Shown here in pieces: positions 50,351 to 63,999 of a stretch of 64,000 nt of DNA. The stretch spans positions 448,001 to 512,000 of the forward strand of contig CBDFIJ010000004.1 in assembly GCA_965248055.1 (NCBI GenBank), read 5' to 3'. The first letter of the stretch is position 1, and the number at the start of each line of letters is the position of its first letter. Source of the stretch: Candidatus Multivoradales bacterium. GTDB taxonomy: Bacteria; Acidobacteriota; Thermoanaerobaculia; Multivoradales; JAHEKO01. The position numbers were made by a program, and so were the translations under genes. A model generated the notes under the pieces. The model saw only the letters and a program-made list of their open reading frames with translations. It ran no database searches and had not been told where the DNA came from.

Positions 50351-51247
50351 CTATCTCAGACCCAGCAAGGCCTTGGTGACGTGCCCCGCCACTTCCGGAT
50401 TCTCCCTCATTCTGCGCAGAGAATAGGCGTACCAGTCAACCCCATAGGGAACGTAGACCCGCAAACGATGGCGCTGCAGCAAGATCGAACGTAACTCTTC
50501 GTCGACTCCCAGCAGCATCTGGAACTCATAGCGATCGCGAGGAGTCTGATGACGATCCAAAAGTGCAGTGGCACCGGCGGCAAGAAACTCATCGTGGGTA
50601 GCAATGCCGGTATAGACACCGTCTCTCAACAGCTTGTCCAAAGCGGCCAAATACGCTTGCTGCACCGTGTTGTAGCCCTTCCACGCGGTCTCCCGAGGCT
50701 CGACATAGATTCCCTTGCAGATGCGAATGTTGGCGTTTTCGCTCGGCAACCCAGTGATGTCGTCGAGCGTGCGCCGCATGTAGGCCTGAAGCACAGTACC
50801 AACATTGGGGTATCGGTCGTGCAACCGCCGGTAGAGATCCAAGGTGGCGTCGGTACAGCTGCGATCTTCCATGTCGATGCGTAGGAAGTTCCCATGTCTA
50901 GCCGCAGCATCGCCAATCTGGAGCAAATTATCCCAGCACAACTGGTGGTCAATCTTCAGTCCCAACATGGTCAACTTGACCGATACGTTAGCGTCTAAAC
51001 CCCGATCGGCAATGGCATCGAACAACTCGACGTACTCGTCCACCGCCGCTTGCGCTTTGGCCGGATCTTGAACCTCCTCGCCAAGCACGTCGAGGGTCGC
51101 CATCGCTCCTTGTTGGTTGAGCCTCCGCACGGTTTCCAGTGCGGTAGTGCGGGTCTCGCCGGCGAAATAGCGGCCGGCCACCTTGCGAACAAGGCTCCGC
51201 GGCACGCCGGGGAGCAGTGTGACGATCAGACGATTAAGCCAGGACAA
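50351..51247 (-). CDS. Monofunctional proline dehydrogenase
   Basis: SVKLTMLG, RIDMED, LQAY, RICKG.Y.E, IATHD, EFQML.G, RVYVPYG, Y.LRR..E. Confidence 0.93.
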   Translation of the reverse strand: MSWLNRLIVTLLPGVPRSLVRKVAGRYFAGETRTTALETVRRLNQQGAMATLDVLGEEVQDPAKAQAAVDEYVELFDAIADRGLDANVSVKLTMLGLKIDHQLCWDNLLQIGDAAARHGNFLRIDMEDRSCTDATLDLYRRLHDRYPNVGTVLQAYMRRTLDDITGLPSENANIRICKGIYVEPRETAWKGYNTVQQAYLAALDKLLRDGVYTGIATHDEFLAAGATALLDRHQTPRDRYEFQMLLGVDEELRSILLQRHRLRVYVPYGVDWYAYSLRRMRENPEVAGHVTKALLGLR

Positions 51248-51271
51248 AGTTGGGTTCGAGCCGCTCAGGTT

Positions 51272-52636
51272 CTAGGCCGGAGACGGGCCTCCGTTCGAGG
51301 ATCCATTGCTGCCGTTGCCACTACCGTTGGCGGTCTCGCCATCACTGACCCAGCGCACCGAACGCGAACAGGGGCAGACCCCACCCACACGACGCAAGGA
51401 AGGCATCGCGTAGGCGGCTTGTTTGATCTCTAACTCACCATCAGCCACCTGATGCAACAGGCCGACGTAGAACTTGAAGTCTGAACCCGCCCGATAAGAA
51501 TCGGGCAGATGGTGCGACAGGTGCGCTACATAGTCTTCTGCTTGGGTGAATTTCTCGCCGTCGAATCCGACCATCTGAAAAGCCGGAACTCCTCGGCGGC
51601 GGAAAAACTCCTTTGCCGGCAGCCGCATCAGATCCTCCGGAGCGATCCCTTGAACCACTTCGCCCTCTTCGGTTACCCGACGCACTAGGTCCTCGGCCTC
51701 GGTCGCTGTCAGACTCTTGACCCGAGCCCGGACGAAGCGGACGTTTATGTCCTGCACTACCTTGCCGACTTCCTGGTAGTACTGCTCTTGAGCCTCACCA
51801 TTTTTCATCGGTTTGAGGCCGTACCGGACATTGGTGCCACCACCGCGTTCGTCGCCGAACATCTCCAAACCTCGGGGCAACCACTTGTTGACCACTTGCT
51901 GCATGTCCTGCATGGTGATGAATGGCGAGCCGTCGCCGGCTTGCTCTGCCCAACGGCGCATCGGCACTACTCCGGTGGCCAGATGAAACGCTTCTTCGCG
52001 CAGCATCTGCGGCATGCTCTCGGCCATCGGCTTGTAGGCACTGACCTTTTGCATCGCCAACTGATACTTACCGACACGGTCAATCAAACAACAGAAGGTG
52101 ATGTTGTCGACGAAGGAATCGAAGTCGACGTTGAAGGCACCGAGTACGTGGGATCCGGTCTTCATCGACAGGATCTCTTCCACCATGTCTTCACCCTTGA
52201 CGCCACCCACTTCGTCCCAGGTGTCTTCCAGCAGCAGATGCAGCATTTGGTAACCGTGTCGTAGCTCCTCAGCCATCATCCGCAGAACCCAAAACTGATC
52301 CTGCTCGTTTTGAGCTCGGGCAAGGGTCAATTGGTGTTGCTGAATCGAACCAAATTCGGTCGATGCCTGAGCTCGGATTGCTCCCAGTAGATGGTGCGCT
52401 TGCTCAGGATCCAACTCCTCGGCGGTCATCGCCTTAGGTTGGCCCATCTTCACTCCGCATTCCACTTCGTCGCACATGCCCATCTCCCGATAGGCGCACA
52501 ACTCAAAGGTGGGATCCTTGGGGAAAAAGCGATCCCAGTTTTCAATCAGCAGGTCATAGTCCGGCAAATAAGTTCGCCGCCATTTCTCCACCGCTGAATG
52601 GAACTTGGGCGCAATCGTGGTAATTCGACTATTCAT
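51272..52636 (-). CDS. Ferritin-like diiron protein, BoxB/PaaA (aryl-CoA epoxidase) homolog
   Basis: QASTE, AEELRH, IDRVGKYQL, REEAFH, RLP..EF.RR.G correspond to recalled BoxB motifs (QGDTE, VEEGRH, TDRDGKFQL, TEEAHH). Confidence 0.8.
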   Translation of the reverse strand: MNSRITTIAPKFHSAVEKWRRTYLPDYDLLIENWDRFFPKDPTFELCAYREMGMCDEVECGVKMGQPKAMTAEELDPEQAHHLLGAIRAQASTEFGSIQQHQLTLARAQNEQDQFWVLRMMAEELRHGYQMLHLLLEDTWDEVGGVKGEDMVEEILSMKTGSHVLGAFNVDFDSFVDNITFCCLIDRVGKYQLAMQKVSAYKPMAESMPQMLREEAFHLATGVVPMRRWAEQAGDGSPFITMQDMQQVVNKWLPRGLEMFGDERGGGTNVRYGLKPMKNGEAQEQYYQEVGKVVQDINVRFVRARVKSLTATEAEDLVRRVTEEGEVVQGIAPEDLMRLPAKEFFRRRGVPAFQMVGFDGEKFTQAEDYVAHLSHHLPDSYRAGSDFKFYVGLLHQVADGELEIKQAAYAMPSLRRVGGVCPCSRSVRWVSDGETANGSGNGSNGSSNGGPSPA

Positions 52637-53097
52637 GCTTGATCCCCCTCACCAAGATCTCGCACCAGGGTCCGCACGCTGCCCGCAGAGAAGCCCAAGG
52701 CGGCAAAAAACTGGGCGATGCCCTCTTGTTTCTCGATATCCACCAAAGTCTTCACCGACCGCGCGCCGCGCTGCTGAAAATGGTTCAGCATGCGCTCGAC
52801 CAGCCGCCGGCCCACCGAACGCCCCCGCACCTCGGGATCAACTCCTAAGACTTCGATCCATCCGGTGGGTTCCTCAAAACCAAATTCGCCCGAACGAACC
52901 TCGCCAAACATAAAACCCACAACACGACCGCCGTCTTGCGCCACTACCGAAGCATCCGGATCGCGACGCGAGTAGTAGCTCAGCCGGGTCTCCCAGACTT
53001 CGGGTTGATACTTACCACTAATTTTCTCGTCGAGCGCTGCGATACCCCCGAGATGGGTATCATCAAGCGCCACTACTTGGATGTCATGATCTGCCAT
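52633..53097 (-). CDS. GNAT family N-acetyltransferase
   Basis: VVGFM.GEV..GEFG, GWIEVLGVDP..RGRSVG, FF..LGF; 4-nt overlap with the diiron gene. Confidence 0.9.
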   Translation of the reverse strand: MADHDIQVVALDDTHLGGIAALDEKISGKYQPEVWETRLSYYSRRDPDASVVAQDGGRVVGFMFGEVRSGEFGFEEPTGWIEVLGVDPEVRGRSVGRRLVERMLNHFQQRGARSVKTLVDIEKQEGIAQFFAALGFSAGSVRTLVRDLGEGDQA

Positions 53098-53230
53098 GTT
53101 TTAGCTCCTCGCCATGGTGTACTCGCCCAGATATATTTTTCTTGCCGATAGCTGTACCACCACCGCAACGTGCCCAGTCTACCAAGCAATACCCACACCG
53201 GCAGGACCCGCTCGGAAGCACCCAAAGTAG

Positions 53231-54178
53231 CTAAGCGACGTGCTCGTGGGCGTGGTAGCTAGAGCGCACCAAGGCTCCAGACTCACAGTGGGTAAAGCCC
53301 CGTTGTAGAGCGTACGAGCGGTAAGCGGCAAACTGCTCCGGAGTGACCCAACGATCCACCGGCAAGTGCTTCCGAGTTGGTTGGAGATATTGACCGATGG
53401 TCAAAATCTCGACTCCAGCGTTGCGGATATCGGTGATGGTTCCACGGATTTCGCTCTCGCTCTCACCGATCCCAGCCATGATGCCAGTCTTGACGCGACC
53501 GGGACCTCGCAGTCCTCGATATCGACCATCGGCAACCCGTTCTGCCGCTTCAGCGAGCAGCTCTAAAGATCTACGATACCTGCTTCCCGGGCGTGCTTCA
53601 CGGTAGAGCCTGGGAACCGTTTCCATGTTGTGCGAGAACACTTCAGGCTCGGCATCAAGAACAAAATCTAGAGCGTCGGGAACTCCGCGGAAATCCGGGG
53701 TCAAGACTTCCACCACTGTCTCGGAACACCGCTGATGAATCGCTCGAATGACCTCTGCAAAATGCCGAGCACCGCCATCTGGCAAATCGTCCCGGTCCAC
53801 CGAGGTGATCACCGCGTGCTGCAGACCCATGGCTTCGACTGCTTGCGCCACGTGCTCCGGTTCCTGAGCGTCCACCCCCGGATTGGGCCTGCCAGAGGTG
53901 ACGGCGCAAAACCCACACCGACGGGTACAGATGTCACCCAAGATCATCATGGTCGCTGTGCCGTGTTCACCCCAGCACTCATAAATGTTGGGGCATTTCG
54001 CTTCTTCGCAAACGGTGTTCAGATTCAGTCGTGAGACCAAATTGCGAACCTCGTGGTAACGCGCCGGGGTGCGCAAGCGAATACGCAACCAATCCGGACG
54101 GCCACCGGCAGATGGTGGAGCTTGGCTTTCGCCCGAGGCAGGAGACGCACCGCCAATTTGAACTAGATCGTGTGACAT
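53231..54178 (-). CDS. lipA: Lipoyl synthase
   Basis: CEEAKCPNIYEC, CTRRCGFC, TSVDRDDL, HNMETV, GQYLQP, VRSSYHA. Confidence 0.97.
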   Translation of the reverse strand: MSHDLVQIGGASPASGESQAPPSAGGRPDWLRIRLRTPARYHEVRNLVSRLNLNTVCEEAKCPNIYECWGEHGTATMMILGDICTRRCGFCAVTSGRPNPGVDAQEPEHVAQAVEAMGLQHAVITSVDRDDLPDGGARHFAEVIRAIHQRCSETVVEVLTPDFRGVPDALDFVLDAEPEVFSHNMETVPRLYREARPGSRYRRSLELLAEAAERVADGRYRGLRGPGRVKTGIMAGIGESESEIRGTITDIRNAGVEILTIGQYLQPTRKHLPVDRWVTPEQFAAYRSYALQRGFTHCESGALVRSSYHAHEHVA

Positions 54179-54312
54179 CAATTTCTCGCGGTTACCCTTT
54201 CAGCCCATTTTCTGGACGAGCTTCATTCTACCTAGGTTGCTCTGACAATTTCCCGGGATACGGAGCATCCGAGAGCGACCAATCCGAGCTTTCGGCAAAC
54301 CGGTAAACTAGC

Positions 54313-56010
54313 TTGATGCGCGGCTTCCGGTTCCCAACCCCGCTGCCCCAACTGCGCCACTGCGCCCCGGGTCGGTTTCCCCTGGTGATCGGCGTCGCTC
54401 TGAGTGTCCTGGTGCTAACTAGCTGCGAAACAGCGAAACCCATGAAGGTGGCCCAGTCGAAAACGGCGACTACGGTGGAGTCCACTCGACCCATCTCGCC
54501 CCCTGCCCAGGAGGCGAGACCATCGACCCAAGTTGCGAACCCTGGATCCCAGCACAGTTCGGTCGCAGTTTCGGTTGCGGTGCCGGAGGCCCTGATCGCC
54601 ACCGCCTCGGACTGGTACGGGCTCTACATACAAGACACCAAAGTCGGGTTCCTGCATCGGCAGCGTGGGCCGGTGCAAACAGCCTCGGGCGAGTCGACCA
54701 TCGAACTGCGTGAGGATTTCGAAATCCACGCTCTGGTCCTGGGCGGTGAACGCTCAACCAAAATCAGCGAATATCAGCAATTCTTGGCCCAACCCCCGCA
54801 CCTGCTGCACTCTGCAACCTCAGAAACCATCCAGGGTGATGACCGAAGACTGATTCGCGTTGTGCGCACTCAAGACGGCTATGACGCCGAGATCTGCGAG
54901 GCCGACGGTTGTCGCTCGCATGCGCCAGGTATCGATCGCTATACCCTTTCCGACGCGCTGGCCGCCGAAATTTGGATTCGCTCCCATCCCCAGGAAGGCA
55001 CCTCGATCGGCACTGACTCTCTGCTTCTCGGAGATCTCAAACGTAGTCGGGACCAGGTCACTCTGTCGGCCTATCGCTCGACCTTCCTTGACGGACTTCA
55101 GGTCGACTACGCAGAAATTCAGTTTGAAGATCAAGCCAGCGGTATCTCTGGAACCATGCGCATGACGCCTGAAGGCCGCCTACTTGCGGGCACTCTCGCC
55201 GGTGCCTTTGATATCCAATTGGAATCGGAACAGGCCGCCCGCACCTTGGAGGACACCACTGACTTATTCTTGGCGCAAGCAGTACGCGTGGACCAACCGC
55301 TGGGAGAGCTAGAGGAAATTACGGCGATGACTCTGGCGCTGGAGTTCCAGGAGGGTGTCGTTCTTCCATCTAGTCAATACCAATCGTGGTCGTGCACTGA
55401 TCAGGCTTGCCAGTTGCGATTGGGAGCAACCACATCGGCGGGTGCCGAGGATCCTGATTCCCCAGGCAGCCAGACCAGAGACAGTCAGTCCAAAGACGGT
55501 GACTCCAGAGATAGTGAGATCCAAGAAGCTCTGGAAGCGACGGTCAGCCTGCCAACCCAGATTCCAGCAATTCGGGACCTGGCCAAGCGTGCAGTCTCTG
55601 CCGACCTCAGCCAGCGTCAGCAGGTCGAGGAGCTGGTTCACTTTGTCTCCGACTACATCGAAGACTCCTACTTTGCCGAACCGCTTTCGGTGACTGATCT
55701 GATCGACGACCCTCGTGGTGATTGCACCGAGCATTCGATGTTGTTCATCACCCTGGCGCGTTCGCTCGGCATTCCGGCGCGAGAGGTCACCGGGCTGCTC
55801 TACACCGGTGACCTGAGCCAGTCTTTCGGCGGTCATGCCTGGGCCGAAGTTTTCGTTGACCATGCGTGGTTGGAGGTAGACCCAACCTGGGATGAGATTC
55901 CGCCCAACGCCGGACATATCCGTCTCGGCCATCGCTTGGGAGACACCGTGGCACTGCAAGCCGCTCTGGCGGGCGCTACGTTGCGGCTAGTCGAAGTGGA
56001 GCGTCGATAG
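54313..56010 (+). CDS. Transglutaminase-like (Cys-His-Asp) lipoprotein
   Basis: Lipobox LTSC, GDCTEH, GIPAR, HAWAEV, DPTW; start uncertain. Confidence 0.85.
   Translation: MMRGFRFPTPLPQLRHCAPGRFPLVIGVALSVLVLTSCETAKPMKVAQSKTATTVESTRPISPPAQEARPSTQVANPGSQHSSVAVSVAVPEALIATASDWYGLYIQDTKVGFLHRQRGPVQTASGESTIELREDFEIHALVLGGERSTKISEYQQFLAQPPHLLHSATSETIQGDDRRLIRVVRTQDGYDAEICEADGCRSHAPGIDRYTLSDALAAEIWIRSHPQEGTSIGTDSLLLGDLKRSRDQVTLSAYRSTFLDGLQVDYAEIQFEDQASGISGTMRMTPEGRLLAGTLAGAFDIQLESEQAARTLEDTTDLFLAQAVRVDQPLGELEEITAMTLALEFQEGVVLPSSQYQSWSCTDQACQLRLGATTSAGAEDPDSPGSQTRDSQSKDGDSRDSEIQEALEATVSLPTQIPAIRDLAKRAVSADLSQRQQVEELVHFVSDYIEDSYFAEPLSVTDLIDDPRGDCTEHSMLFITLARSLGIPAREVTGLLYTGDLSQSFGGHAWAEVFVDHAWLEVDPTWDEIPPNAGHIRLGHRLGDTVALQAALAGATLRLVEVERR
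55467..55526 (+). repeat. Four degenerate in-frame 15-nt tandem units
   Basis: cagccagaccagaga / cagtcagtccaaaga / cggtgactccagaga / tagtgagatccaaga. Confidence 0.65.
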
Positions 56011-56084
56011 CGTTGGGATATCCCGGAGTCCGGGAGAAGGGTTCCACTGCTCGATACCTCGGTGGTTGCACGGTCGCACCTCCA

Positions 56085-56819
56085 CTAAGGAGAGACAGCC
56101 GGCGAACGGAGATCGCCTGCGGCCAGCTTGCGCCCCAGCACCCGTTCAAAGTGGCCAACCAAACAATCAGCCACCTCTGGCAGCGACGGAGCTGTACCCA
56201 GCTCCTGCGCGATAGACGTCATCTGCACGCCCTGCAGTCCGCAGGCAACGATGCCCTGAAAATAAGACAGATCGGTGCTGACGTTGAGCGCGAATCCATG
56301 GGTGGTAATCCAGCGGCTCAAATGAACCCCAATGGAAGCAATCTTGCGTGCGCCAACCCAAACACCAATCTCAGCTTGCTGGTGGCGAGCGTGAGCCTCA
56401 ATACCAAAGTCGCCAAGCATTGCTACCAACATCTCTTGCAAGCGATCAACGTACTGGCGAATATCGCGCTCGGCCCCCAGATCGAGAATCGGATAACCAA
56501 CCAGCTGTCCCGGTCCGTGGTAGGTAACTTGCCCACCGCGGTCGGTTTCATAAACCTCAACTCCGCGACTGGCGAGCCACTCTTTAGGCATCACGATGTC
56601 GTCCTGCGAGGCGCTGCGGCCCAGAGTGTAGACGTGCGAATGCTCCAGCATCACCAAGGCTTCAGGGCCCCCTTGGCGTAGTTGCTCGCGCAACTTTTCT
56701 TGCAAGGTAAGACCCGCGGCGTAGGAAATCAGACCGAGCCACTGCCAGGCGGTGCTGGTAGTTTTTTCCAACCCGGGCGAGCGACTAGAGATAGGGATCG
56801 AGCTCGTTCCAGCTTTCAT
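56085..56819 (-). CDS. lipB: Octanoyltransferase LipB
   Basis: LEH..VYTLGR, RGGQVTYHGPGQLVGYP, KIASIG, HGFALN, ACG; start may be TTG 56771. Confidence 0.95.
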   Translation of the reverse strand: MKAGTSSIPISSRSPGLEKTTSTAWQWLGLISYAAGLTLQEKLREQLRQGGPEALVMLEHSHVYTLGRSASQDDIVMPKEWLASRGVEVYETDRGGQVTYHGPGQLVGYPILDLGAERDIRQYVDRLQEMLVAMLGDFGIEAHARHQQAEIGVWVGARKIASIGVHLSRWITTHGFALNVSTDLSYFQGIVACGLQGVQMTSIAQELGTAPSLPEVADCLVGHFERVLGRKLAAGDLRSPAVSP

Positions 56820-58425
56820 TCGCCAGTGTGTGGCGGATGTCGTTCATAAAGTGGTCGGCATCTGCGCCATCGACCAGACGATGGTCATAGGTGATCGCCA
56901 TGTAACACATGGTTTTGATCGCGATGGTGTCATTGCCCTCACTGTCCGTGACCACCACCGGCCGCTTCTCAATCGCCCCCAATCCCAAAATCGCCACCTG
57001 TGGTTGATTGATAATCGGGGTGCCAAACAGACTGCCGTAGACGCCGGGATTGGTAACGGTAAACGTTCCACCCTGGATGTCGTCCGGCGACAGTTTCTTG
57101 GAACGTGCTTGGGCCGCCAGGTCGTTGGCCTGTTTTGCCAAGCCCAAGAGCGATAACTGATCAGCGTTCTTGATCACCGGGACGATTAAGCCCCAATCCA
57201 ACGCCACCGCCATACCCAAATTAATGTCGCGCTTGAATACGATGTTGGTTCCGTCAATCGAGGCGTTGAGCTTACGGTGGCTCTTGAGAGCATTGGCAAT
57301 CGCCCGAAAGATAAACGGCATGTAGCTCAGCTTGGTGTCCTGAGCTGCCTCAAACTTCTCCTTGGCTTGCTTGCGAATGCGCGCCACCCGAGACATGTCG
57401 ACGTGAAACAGGGTCGTCACGTGCGCCGCAGTCGATTTGGAGTAGGACATGTGCGCCGCGGTGATCTGTCGAATTCTCGACATTGGCTCAATCTCGACGT
57501 TGTCGTTGGGACCATACGGCGCGACGTAGAAGTCGCCACTCGAGCGGGTAGTTGGTGGGGGCACTGCCCGTTTGGCCGGGAGTCCGACCTTAGCCGGGGC
57601 TTGCTCAACCACCGACTGAGCGGCTGGAGCAGGGGAAACCACCACTTGCGCCGCTTGCGCCGGAGCTGGCTGGGTCGTCGTCGGAACTGCTGGCGTTGGG
57701 GTCGCCTGGGTTGGAGCGGGGCTGGTTGGGGCAACCGGGTCAGGTACTGGAGCAGAGCTGGGCAACGGAGCGGGTGCTACCGGCTGAATAATCTGATCCG
57801 CCGCCGCACTCACCCCAGAAACTTCTGCGGGTGAAGGTGTGGGAAGTACAACCGCCGCTTCTCCACTCTTCGCAATGTAGCGCTCGACGTCTGCTTTGGT
57901 CACCCGGCCATGGATCCCAGTGCCGGGGATTGCGCTGATGTCCAGTCCGTGTTGTTCGGCCATCTTGCGCACCACCGGTGACGAGTGGGTACGTACCCGC
58001 TCCACCTCACGCGCAGACTCGGGAGCGGAAGGGGCAGTCCCTTGCGTAGCTACAGGCGCAACCGCCATGGGTTCGACAGCCACTGGTTGCACTACCACAG
58101 GTTGTCCGATCATTGGGTCAGCCACCACAGCTTCCGCGACCGGCTCAACCGCAACCACTGGTGCGGTGGGAGCGGTCGCCTGCTCACCGGCTTCGCCGAT
58201 TAGAGCCACCACTTCATCTACCGGCACCGTCGTGCCTTCCGGGTAGCGAATCTCCAACAACACGCCGTCTCCAGGACTGGGAATTTCCGCATCCACTTTG
58301 TCGGTCGATATTTCAAACAGCGGTTGATCGCGCTCGACCCGCTCACCAACTTGGGCCATCCAGCGGGTAATCGTGCCCTCAGCTACCGACTCCCCCATTT
58401 GGGGCATCACCACTTCCGTCGCCAT
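56785..58425 (-). CDS. 2-oxoacid dehydrogenase E2 dihydrolipoamide acyltransferase
   Basis: Lipoyl domain STDKVD, PSBD SPVVRK...GTG..GRVTK.D, catalytic YDHRLVDG, Pro/Ala/Val-rich linkers. Confidence 0.95.
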   Translation of the reverse strand: MATEVVMPQMGESVAEGTITRWMAQVGERVERDQPLFEISTDKVDAEIPSPGDGVLLEIRYPEGTTVPVDEVVALIGEAGEQATAPTAPVVAVEPVAEAVVADPMIGQPVVVQPVAVEPMAVAPVATQGTAPSAPESAREVERVRTHSSPVVRKMAEQHGLDISAIPGTGIHGRVTKADVERYIAKSGEAAVVLPTPSPAEVSGVSAAADQIIQPVAPAPLPSSAPVPDPVAPTSPAPTQATPTPAVPTTTQPAPAQAAQVVVSPAPAAQSVVEQAPAKVGLPAKRAVPPPTTRSSGDFYVAPYGPNDNVEIEPMSRIRQITAAHMSYSKSTAAHVTTLFHVDMSRVARIRKQAKEKFEAAQDTKLSYMPFIFRAIANALKSHRKLNASIDGTNIVFKRDINLGMAVALDWGLIVPVIKNADQLSLLGLAKQANDLAAQARSKKLSPDDIQGGTFTVTNPGVYGSLFGTPIINQPQVAILGLGAIEKRPVVVTDSEGNDTIAIKTMCYMAITYDHRLVDGADADHFMNDIRHTLANESWNELDPYL

Positions 58426-62694: not shown

Positions 62695-63999
62695 TCAAAC
62701 GGACAGCTCCTGCGGCTTGTCTGGTGGAGGGCCGTAGTGAAGGTTGACCAGCGGTGCGGGTTGGTCACCGAAGGCAATTCCCATGTCCGCTAAGAACGCA
62801 AACGGCGGCACTCCACCGATGAGAACGAATACATAATCGTTAGCCAGTTCGACTCGGTCGCCTTCGGAGACTTCAAGGACCACACGATCGGTTTGAATCT
62901 CAATCACATGCGAACTGAAGATTACTTGTACGCTGCCTTTCGTCATCGCCTTTTCAATCCGTTCTTGGTTCTTTTTCTTGATCCGAAAAAAGTTCGATTT
63001 GCGATAGGACAGTGTTACTTCATTGCTGGAAATCCGGGCCAACCCCAGCGCCGCCTCAATAGCGCTATCTCCGCCACCTACGACCAGGACTTTCTCGCCG
63101 CAATAGGAAGCGGCATCGATCAACCGATACATGACCTTCTCTTGCTCTTCTCCTGGCACGCCCAACATGCGCGGCGTACCTCGGCGCCCCAAACACAGCA
63201 GTAAGGTCTTGGTGAGGAAGTCACCATGGCCACTTCCCACCAGAAATCCACCGGCCTTTGAAACAACGCTGCGCAACTCACTTTCAAACGCGATCTCAAG
63301 TCCACTATTGTCGACCAGGTCGGTGAACAAACTCAAGAGATGTTCCTTGCTGTACTCGGCTCTTGACAACTCTACTGAGGGACCCACTTTGACCGGTTGA
63401 GTTAAAACCATCTTGCGACGTGGGTAGTGCAGCAGCGTACCTCCAATACTTGCTTCTCGCTCGAGAAGCCGAAAGCGTAGTCCCAGCGTCTGAGCTTCAA
63501 GTGCGGCGCTCAAACCTGCGGGCCCGGCACCCACGACGACCAAGTCCAACTCGCTAGCTCCGTCAAGTCTTGTATCGAGAGTCCGAGCGATAGCCTGAAC
63601 TGCGTCGCGCCCTTGTTCGCAGGCGTTCTTTACTAGAGCCAAACCACCGAGTTCACCAGCAATATAGATCCCAGGAACAGTTGTCTGATACTGAACATCA
63701 AGCCGTGGAATATCGTCGCGCCCTATTAGGTCTCCTAAGCCCACTTCGATGGCGCCCACCGGGCAGGCCGTCTCGCAGTGGCCGTGACCAACGCAACGCA
63801 ACCCGTTGATAACGACCGCCGTCCCTCCAACGACCCCGAGAGGATCGCCTTCCGGACAAGCTTCAATGCACGCGGCACAACCAATGCAAAGATTGGCGTC
63901 GATGTAGGGGTACTGGGCCGTGGGTTGATCGATTCCCAACAACAACGCCTCGGCTTTCCGTTTTCGGTCGTGGTGACGCCGTCGTCGAAACCGAACCGC
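62695..63999 (-). CDS. 2[4Fe-4S] ferredoxin fused to thioredoxin-reductase-like FAD/NAD(P)H oxidoreductase (5' partial)
   Basis: CIGCAACIEACP, CVGHGHCETACP, VGAGPAG, GRRGTPR, VGGGDSA.E; frame is open to the window edge. Confidence 0.88.
   Translation of the reverse strand, partial: AVRFRRRRHHDRKRKAEALLLGIDQPTAQYPYIDANLCIGCAACIEACPEGDPLGVVGGTAVVINGLRCVGHGHCETACPVGAIEVGLGDLIGRDDIPRLDVQYQTTVPGIYIAGELGGLALVKNACEQGRDAVQAIARTLDTRLDGASELDLVVVGAGPAGLSAALEAQTLGLRFRLLEREASIGGTLLHYPRRKMVLTQPVKVGPSVELSRAEYSKEHLLSLFTDLVDNSGLEIAFESELRSVVSKAGGFLVGSGHGDFLTKTLLLCLGRRGTPRMLGVPGEEQEKVMYRLIDAASYCGEKVLVVGGGDSAIEAALGLARISSNEVTLSYRKSNFFRIKKKNQERIEKAMTKGSVQVIFSSHVIEIQTDRVVLEVSEGDRVELANDYVFVLIGGVPPFAFLADMGIAFGDQPAPLVNLHYGPPPDKPQELSV

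Follow-up and report, generated by a model that had tools for sequence, protein, structure and literature searches.

The 64,000-nucleotide stretch analysed here (the window; positions 448,001 to 512,000 of contig CBDFIJ010000004.1, assembly GCA_965248055.1, from a Candidatus Multivoradales bacterium of the Acidobacteriota) encodes a diiron protein of the BoxB lineage that probably serves as oxygenase in a non-canonical Box-type pathway with dispersed genes, acting on benzoyl-CoA or a ring-substituted benzoyl-CoA. This reading draws on the fold, iron ligands and tree position of the protein, on the linkage of its gene to that of a GNAT acetyltransferase, and on its co-occurrence with candidate pathway genes elsewhere in the genome. 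An earlier sequence-only reading had proposed a divergent acyl- or aryl-CoA oxygenase, and a divergent BoxB-like aryl-CoA oxygenase distinct from canonical BoxB is indeed supported: the protein lies outside canonical BoxB, its pocket is altered, and no known reductase accompanies it. The best reading is of a protein that would work like BoxB but fails BoxB membership on profile score, clade and the presence of BoxC.

The AlphaFold model of the diiron protein (mean predicted local distance difference test score 91.8, low at residues 414-421 and beyond 435) has BoxB as its best structural match (Z 33.0, root mean square deviation 2.5, 344 residues aligned), compared with Z 23.3 for SSO1313 and Z 23.1 for PaaA. 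Residues were mapped by alignment to Azoarcus evansii BoxB, with roles taken from PMC5489048. All six iron ligands are kept (E94, E124, H127, D186, E215, and H218, corresponding to BoxB E120, E150, H153, D211, E240, and H243), including both ExxH motifs noted before (E124-H127 and E215-H218). Five of the seven second-shell and pocket residues named for BoxB in PMC5489048 are also retained (Gln116, Thr119, Ser123, Phe193, and Phe206, BoxB numbering), among them the substrate-binding Gln116. The remaining two differ in the sequence alignment: Thr210 is replaced by Ile185, and Phe203 by Asn178, with asparagine at this position in 119 of 120 close homologues. The protein reaches 57.1 bits on the BoxB profile TIGR03225 (cut-off 499.1) and 33.8 on the PaaA profile TIGR02156 (cut-off 280), and the top match in a sequence search of the PDB was SSO1313 (4MUD, E 5e-15). 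A search for fused forms returned one long protein among 7532 candidates, which carries unrelated repeat domains and was set aside as weak evidence.

The diiron protein and a sister group of 41-45% identity form one branch that is separate from those of canonical BoxB, of a short BoxB-like group and of the PaaA-type proteins, both in a quick tree of 81 rows and in a second tree of 77 rows from which four long branches had been dropped (the PaaA-type rows were all from Acidobacteriota, E. coli PaaA being absent). In an approximately unbiased (AU) test on 24 chosen rows, grouping the diiron protein with canonical BoxB, apart from the other groups, was rejected (p-AU 7e-8); a position of its branch as sister of BoxB alone was not rejected (p 0.35), leaving sister of BoxB, or of BoxB plus the short group, as alternatives on these 24 rows. 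The phylogenetic check proposed earlier against BoxB and PaaA therefore places the protein outside canonical BoxB rather than nested within it. Records of the close relatives are labelled Thermoanaerobaculia or Acidobacteriota.

The protein had been described as an orphan, which does not hold for the genome (97.7% complete) as a whole. No BoxA, BoxC or Paa subunit is encoded among the 16 window proteins scanned, as stated before, and BoxA, BoxC and PaaB above cut-off were likewise missing from searches of the whole genome; the genome does encode, however, a BoxD above cut-off (C4:1244086-1245633; NF008868, 603 bits vs. a cut-off of 444) and a BoxC-like one-domain crotonase of 263 amino acids (C4:1076142-1076930) beside a thiolase. 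The crotonase belongs to a cluster (C4:1076142-1079842; L124:8143-11843) with the thiolase and two further crotonases, which lack the AGANIxML, KxxFC, and NET motifs. It matches the first BoxC domain (E 1e-26), is 31-34% identical to BoxC and scores 94 bits against the BoxC cut-off of 712. Common to it and that domain are both glutamates and the motifs AGANIxML and KxxFCxxxNET, the latter with the cysteine that we take to be catalytic in BoxC. The first BoxC domain holds the sole active centre of that enzyme (PMC4498308). The crotonase is also a 69-71% identical orthologue of the crotonase in short BoxB-like operons of other Acidobacteriota, and in other genomes it adjoins short BoxB-type genes and an aldehyde dehydrogenase gene. 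These operons, built around a BoxB-like gene of ~390 amino acids (L107:7071-16927, L108, L109, L113, and L115), contain two crotonases, an aldehyde dehydrogenase, a rhodanese, an amidohydrolase, and a 4-hydroxybenzoyl-CoA reductase-like trio, and some also contain CoA-transferases. Crotonases of Thermus and haloarchaea (36-41% identity) lack the BoxC-type motifs and were not counted as orthologues.

Distribution was surveyed in 300 Acidobacteriota genomes, leaving out one unpublished genome (G023). Of these, 31 carry a divergent BoxB-type gene, belonging either to the lineage of the diiron protein or to one of two related lineages, and all 31 encode the crotonase. It is further present in 32 of 51 genomes with canonical BoxB. 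Among the 17 PaaA-type genomes, a group assembled partly by inspecting crotonase-bearing genomes, 16 encode it, as does one of the remaining 201, which were screened with the diiron protein and only eight of them also with PF05138. Hence, 79 of the 80 crotonase-bearing genomes have a BoxB- or PaaA-type gene. The crotonase is also encoded in the one diiron-gene genome that is labelled Gemmatimonadota. Within the organism's own order, eight sampled genomes encode the diiron protein's form, and five encode canonical BoxB with BoxC instead, these five having neither the crotonase nor the GNAT. PF05138 genes over or near cut-off number one per genome in 30 related genomes, bar one weak extra match, and the organism itself has a single such gene. 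Two-domain BoxC is encoded in 50 of 50 canonical-BoxB genomes and in none of 30 divergent-type genomes (below cut-off in the organism's own). Among the 31 divergent genomes, six have a BoxD-type gene, 22 an alternative dehydrogenase, none both, and three neither; the alternative dehydrogenase was found in none of 25 control genomes without a diiron match. BoxA was detected in none of 80 genomes, and since these include 50 with canonical BoxB and BoxC, its absence is not diagnostic. The best BoxA-like match in the organism's genome proved to be NqrF. The window also contains a 4Fe-4S ferredoxin domain fused to a YpdA/TrxR-like flavoprotein (62695-63945, minus strand), which is patchy among relatives; as a candidate reductase it was discarded, with a match in two of seven close and three of 25 control genomes.

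In the proposed route, whose steps follow the Box pathway roles given in PMC4498308, the single-chain diiron centre would epoxidise an aryl-CoA ring at the expense of O2 and two electrons, the substrate being either benzoyl-CoA or an amino- or hydroxy-substituted benzoyl-CoA. The one-domain crotonase would probably open the epoxide hydrolytically, BoxD would probably oxidise the resulting aldehyde, and the thiolase cluster could then carry out beta-oxidation, with electrons supplied from a source other than BoxA.

Several points weigh against this reading. The benzoyl pocket differs from that of BoxB, as Phe203 is replaced by Asn and Thr210 by Ile. The crotonase may perform a step other than that of BoxC, because 32 of the 51 BoxC-bearing and 16 of the 17 PaaA-type genomes encode it. 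In sequence searches, generic crotonases score above BoxC as its matches. The co-occurrence counts do not amount to a statistical test because related genomes are not independent. Finally, a benzoate-CoA ligase family gene above cut-off is found in only part of the genomes of the three divergent groups (five of eight, two of nine, and eight of 14), and that of the organism itself is surrounded by genes for a flavin monooxygenase, an old yellow enzyme (OYE) and an acyl-CoA dehydrogenase, and its substrate may be a different one. There (C4:1493888-1502217; L203:7889-16218), the ligase family gene faces a split flavin monooxygenase/OYE pair, accompanied by genes for an acyl-CoA dehydrogenase, a crotonase, a RidA-like protein and a short-chain dehydrogenase/reductase, and an integron integrase adjoins. 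We take this cluster to resemble anthraniloyl-CoA clusters.

The distribution of the crotonase also bears on an alternative that we consider unlikely, in which the diiron protein is a single-chain phenylacetyl-CoA 1,2-epoxidase replacing PaaABCE, with the crotonase and the dehydrogenase replacing PaaZ. The crotonase is present in 16 of the 17 PaaA-type genomes, all of them without a match to PaaZ, a PaaG-like gene adjoins it at some loci and occurs in eight of nine sister-group genomes, and the altered pocket could suit another acyl group. In addition, strains without paaABCD have been argued to possess an unidentified phenylacetyl-CoA epoxidase (PMC4453571). However, the PaaG-like gene is missing from all eight genomes with the diiron protein's form, the sole PaaK-like gene (220 vs. 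a cut-off of 646) lies among UbiD/UbiX genes, the pocket is BoxB-like and not PaaA-like, and A. evansii BoxB is described in PMC4498308 as inactive on phenylacetyl-CoA. Moreover, the Acidobacteriota PaaA-type proteins may themselves be benzoyl-CoA enzymes, because they are 53-63% identical to PaaA-type proteins encoded on plasmids in clusters with benzoate-CoA ligase or CoA-transferase and UbiD genes. The plasmids concerned are haloarchaeal and Thermus plasmids whose PaaABCD-type clusters (L269, NZ_CP085331.1; L271, NZ_CP007056.1; L270, NZ_AP024272.1) have as neighbours either a benzoate-CoA ligase family gene or genes for a CoA-transferase and UbiD; the epoxidases encoded there may act on benzoyl-CoA and not on phenylacetyl-CoA. 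In the haloarchaeal clusters, a GNAT and a 2Fe-2S ferredoxin gene adjoin paaA; this GNAT scores 16-20 bits on the profile of the GNAT family studied here, as generic GNATs do, and was not counted as an orthologue.

At its own locus (Table 1), the diiron gene is joined to the GNAT gene by a 4-nucleotide overlap (shared ATGA), as reported before, and the proline dehydrogenase (ProDH) gene lies 24 nucleotides away. The stated order of genes on the minus strand is correct for six of them; the gene inserted between lipB and lipA, whose product looks secreted, lies on the plus strand. Promoter and terminator scans gave results at chance level only.

Table 1. Genes at the diiron protein locus, in window coordinates
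Feature	Position	Strand	Basis
E2 of 2-oxoacid dehydrogenase	58425 (ATG) to 56785	-	PF00198, PF00364, PF02817
Octanoyltransferase LipB	56819-56085	-	TIGR00214 above cut-off; lineage synteny
Transglutaminase-like gene, inserted between lipB and lipA	54313-56010	+	PF01841, open reading frame
Lipoyl synthase LipA	54181-53231	-	TIGR00510 above cut-off; lineage synteny
GNAT acetyltransferase, 154 amino acids	53097-52633	-	PF00583
BoxB-lineage diiron protein, 454 amino acids	52636-51272	-	PF05138 above cut-off
Monofunctional proline dehydrogenase (ProDH)	51247-50351	-	PF01619; neighbour in one lineage only, outside conserved unit

Comparison of loci separated the genes that travel with the diiron gene from those that do not. 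We considered the best 80 of 165 close loci found, counting a neighbour where enough flanking sequence was available (with room), together with a second clade of 47 metagenome loci, 27 of which have 1 kb downstream. The GNAT gene adjoins the diiron gene at 69 of 70 close loci with room upstream and at 34 of 35 second-clade loci with room, in agreement with the coupling suggested earlier. Where room is available downstream, ProDH follows at 73 of 76 close loci. Of the 45 close loci having 9 kb upstream, 30 have lipA, 14 have lipB, and six have E2. ProDH, lipA, and E2 are found at none of the 47 second-clade loci. At the nine loci of the sister group, none of the window's neighbour genes is present, the GNAT gene included. 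As only the GNAT gene persists across both clades, it forms the conserved unit with the diiron gene, and conservation of the neighbourhood holds for this pair and not for ProDH, lipA and E2, which are confined to one lineage. The lipoate and proline genes are mere neighbours of the diiron gene. The sequence-only reading had instead suggested that the substrate of the protein is perhaps a product of the adjoining E1/E2 complex; this idea, or a supply of electrons from ProDH, could draw on the close and recurrent ProDH gene and on the fact that an aryl-CoA source was not identified in many genomes. We regard it as very improbable: these links fail because ProDH, lipA, and E2 are absent from the 47 second-clade loci and from the nine sister-group loci, E2 is infrequent even among close loci, and a normal 1-pyrroline-5-carboxylate dehydrogenase, the ordinary partner of ProDH, is encoded above cut-off elsewhere in the genome.

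By genomic context, the GNAT appears BadL-like. Our survey of 301 genomes found 33 GNAT-family matches away from any diiron gene, 20 of them within 8 kb of oah. Of the 22 such paralogue loci retrieved, 18 have genes resembling bcr, had, or oah at a distance of no more than 1.5 kb; the paralogues share a GEVRxxEFG-type motif and an acetyl-CoA loop. BadL of Rhodopseudomonas palustris and its homologues, including amb3392 and gmet_2096, acetylate aminobenzoates (PMC6191541). By analogy, the GNAT is most likely a small-molecule N-acetyltransferase that probably acetylates aminobenzoates, either as a signal or to divert analogues.

The same activity of BadL homologues could fit a protein that hydroxylates or N-oxygenates an amino- or acetamidobenzoyl compound, acting in line with the GNAT in tailoring or biosynthesis without ring cleavage, a role that the asparagine in place of Phe203 would also accommodate. 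In the second clade, upstream genes in the same orientation encode a chorismate-binding enzyme at 7 of 47 loci and a class IV aminotransferase-family protein at 8, which also speaks for such a role. An FrsA-like esterase gene upstream and a short phosphorylase gene downstream of the GNAT/diiron pair were also observed in this clade, and the loci with chorismate-binding, aminotransferase and esterase neighbours are L214-L217, L220, L234, L242, L244, and L246. However, pab-like genes do not recur around the diiron gene at the best 80 close loci, and the sister group has the asparagine yet no such GNAT nearby at nine of nine loci. Ring cleavage is favoured by the close association with a dehydrogenase and a putative ring-opening crotonase, and we give the hydroxylase or N-oxygenase a rather small chance.

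In the organism's genome, Had and Oah are encoded above cut-off and benzoyl-CoA reductase (BCR)-like subunits below it. UbiD/UbiX genes, five members of the haem-copper oxidase family, and a trio resembling 4-hydroxybenzoyl-CoA reductase are present as well; from these sequences, the organism looks able to handle benzoyl-CoA both with and without O2. The BCR-like cluster (C4:2658133-2665185; L126:1133-8185) falls below all bcr and bzd cut-offs, includes Had and Oah genes above cut-off, carries a TetR regulator gene and a divergent hemerythrin gene, and possibly represents a divergent reductase type. Given that the organism encodes Had, Oah and BCR-like proteins and that the GNAT family is tied to BCR clusters, the diiron protein might be conceived as removing or sensing O2, protecting or controlling an O2-sensitive benzoyl-CoA reductase, and its extra cysteines could sense the redox state. 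This seems quite improbable to us, as Oah is found in four of the eight genomes with the diiron protein's form vs. eight of eight for the crotonase, and the aryl-CoA pocket is conserved. The crotonase itself was rejected as part of the anaerobic pathway, being present in only 25 of 38 Oah genomes.

The extra cysteine motifs reported earlier are present in the diiron protein (C47, C55, C60, C182, C183, C421, and C423). C47, C55, C182, C421, and C423 are found in all 120 close homologues and C60 in 115, with the C-terminal pair forming the motif C421-P-C423 (CPC). In the second clade (~56% identity), 37 of 39 rows have CxC at the first cysteine position and 28 have CPC, the rows without CxC or CPC being short, cut or frameshifted. 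The sister group lacks C47, C55, and C60 in nine of nine cases, and its matches stop near residue 395, ahead of the cysteine-bearing tail. The joint gain, loss, and ligand swap of the cysteine pairs suggest one four-cysteine metal site, which the invariant pairs may form and through which electrons could possibly enter. A bolder version of the Box-type reading, which we put forward tentatively and think rather unlikely, is a BoxA-independent, self-wired epoxidase in which the two cysteine pairs (N-terminal C47/C55 or CxC, and CPC) would form a rubredoxin-like or Fe-S site feeding the diiron centre, and which would open amino- or acetamidobenzoyl-CoA prepared or controlled by the GNAT. If true, rings would here be cleaved aerobically by a route not yet described, served by a one-domain BoxC and either of two interchangeable dehydrogenases and found among uncultured Acidobacteriota and in one or more further lineages.

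BoxB and PaaABCE are the only aryl-CoA ring epoxidases characterised in the cited papers, and the lineage described here offers a candidate third enzyme type. A p-hydroxybenzoyl-CoA 1-hydroxylase, PhgA, is named in PMC11848710. Screens based on boxABC markers would miss the divergent lineages and hence the 31 of 300 Acidobacteriota genomes that carry them. The crotonase is a candidate minimal BoxC, and the lineage provides a direct route to ask which reductase serves BoxB without BoxA, as in all 80 genomes. Our literature search, which left most subscription journals outside, found no description of a divergent BoxB lineage; in the available main texts of PMC13186573 and PMC10803450 Acidobacteria are unmentioned, although their supplements may list such genes.

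Among known systems, BoxB of A. evansii (3PM5, 3PER, 3PF7, and 3Q1G) is closest to the diiron protein in its single-chain diiron fold with six ligands, but the two are only 22% identical, the diiron protein differs at Phe203 and Thr210 and is coupled to a GNAT, and its cysteine pairs and tail (residues 385-434) do not align. PaaA of PaaABCE (3PVR and 4IIT; TIGR02156) shares membership of PF05138 and the diiron core, whereas the organism's genome encodes neither PaaB nor a second PF05138 protein (PaaC), and the diiron protein has different pocket residues and occupies a separate branch. The crotonase resembles the first domain of BoxC in its motifs and both glutamates, but has one domain and is found beside intact BoxC in many genomes. 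BadL is likewise a GNAT of PF00583, and the nearest paralogues of the GNAT studied here lie in benzoyl-CoA reductase clusters, but here the GNAT is coupled to an oxygenase and not to a reductase or a BadM regulator. Finally, SSO1313 of Sulfolobus solfataricus (4MUD), a PaaA/BoxB-like structural-genomics protein of 235 amino acids whose title gives no function, comprises the core only, and this core superposes on that of the diiron protein.

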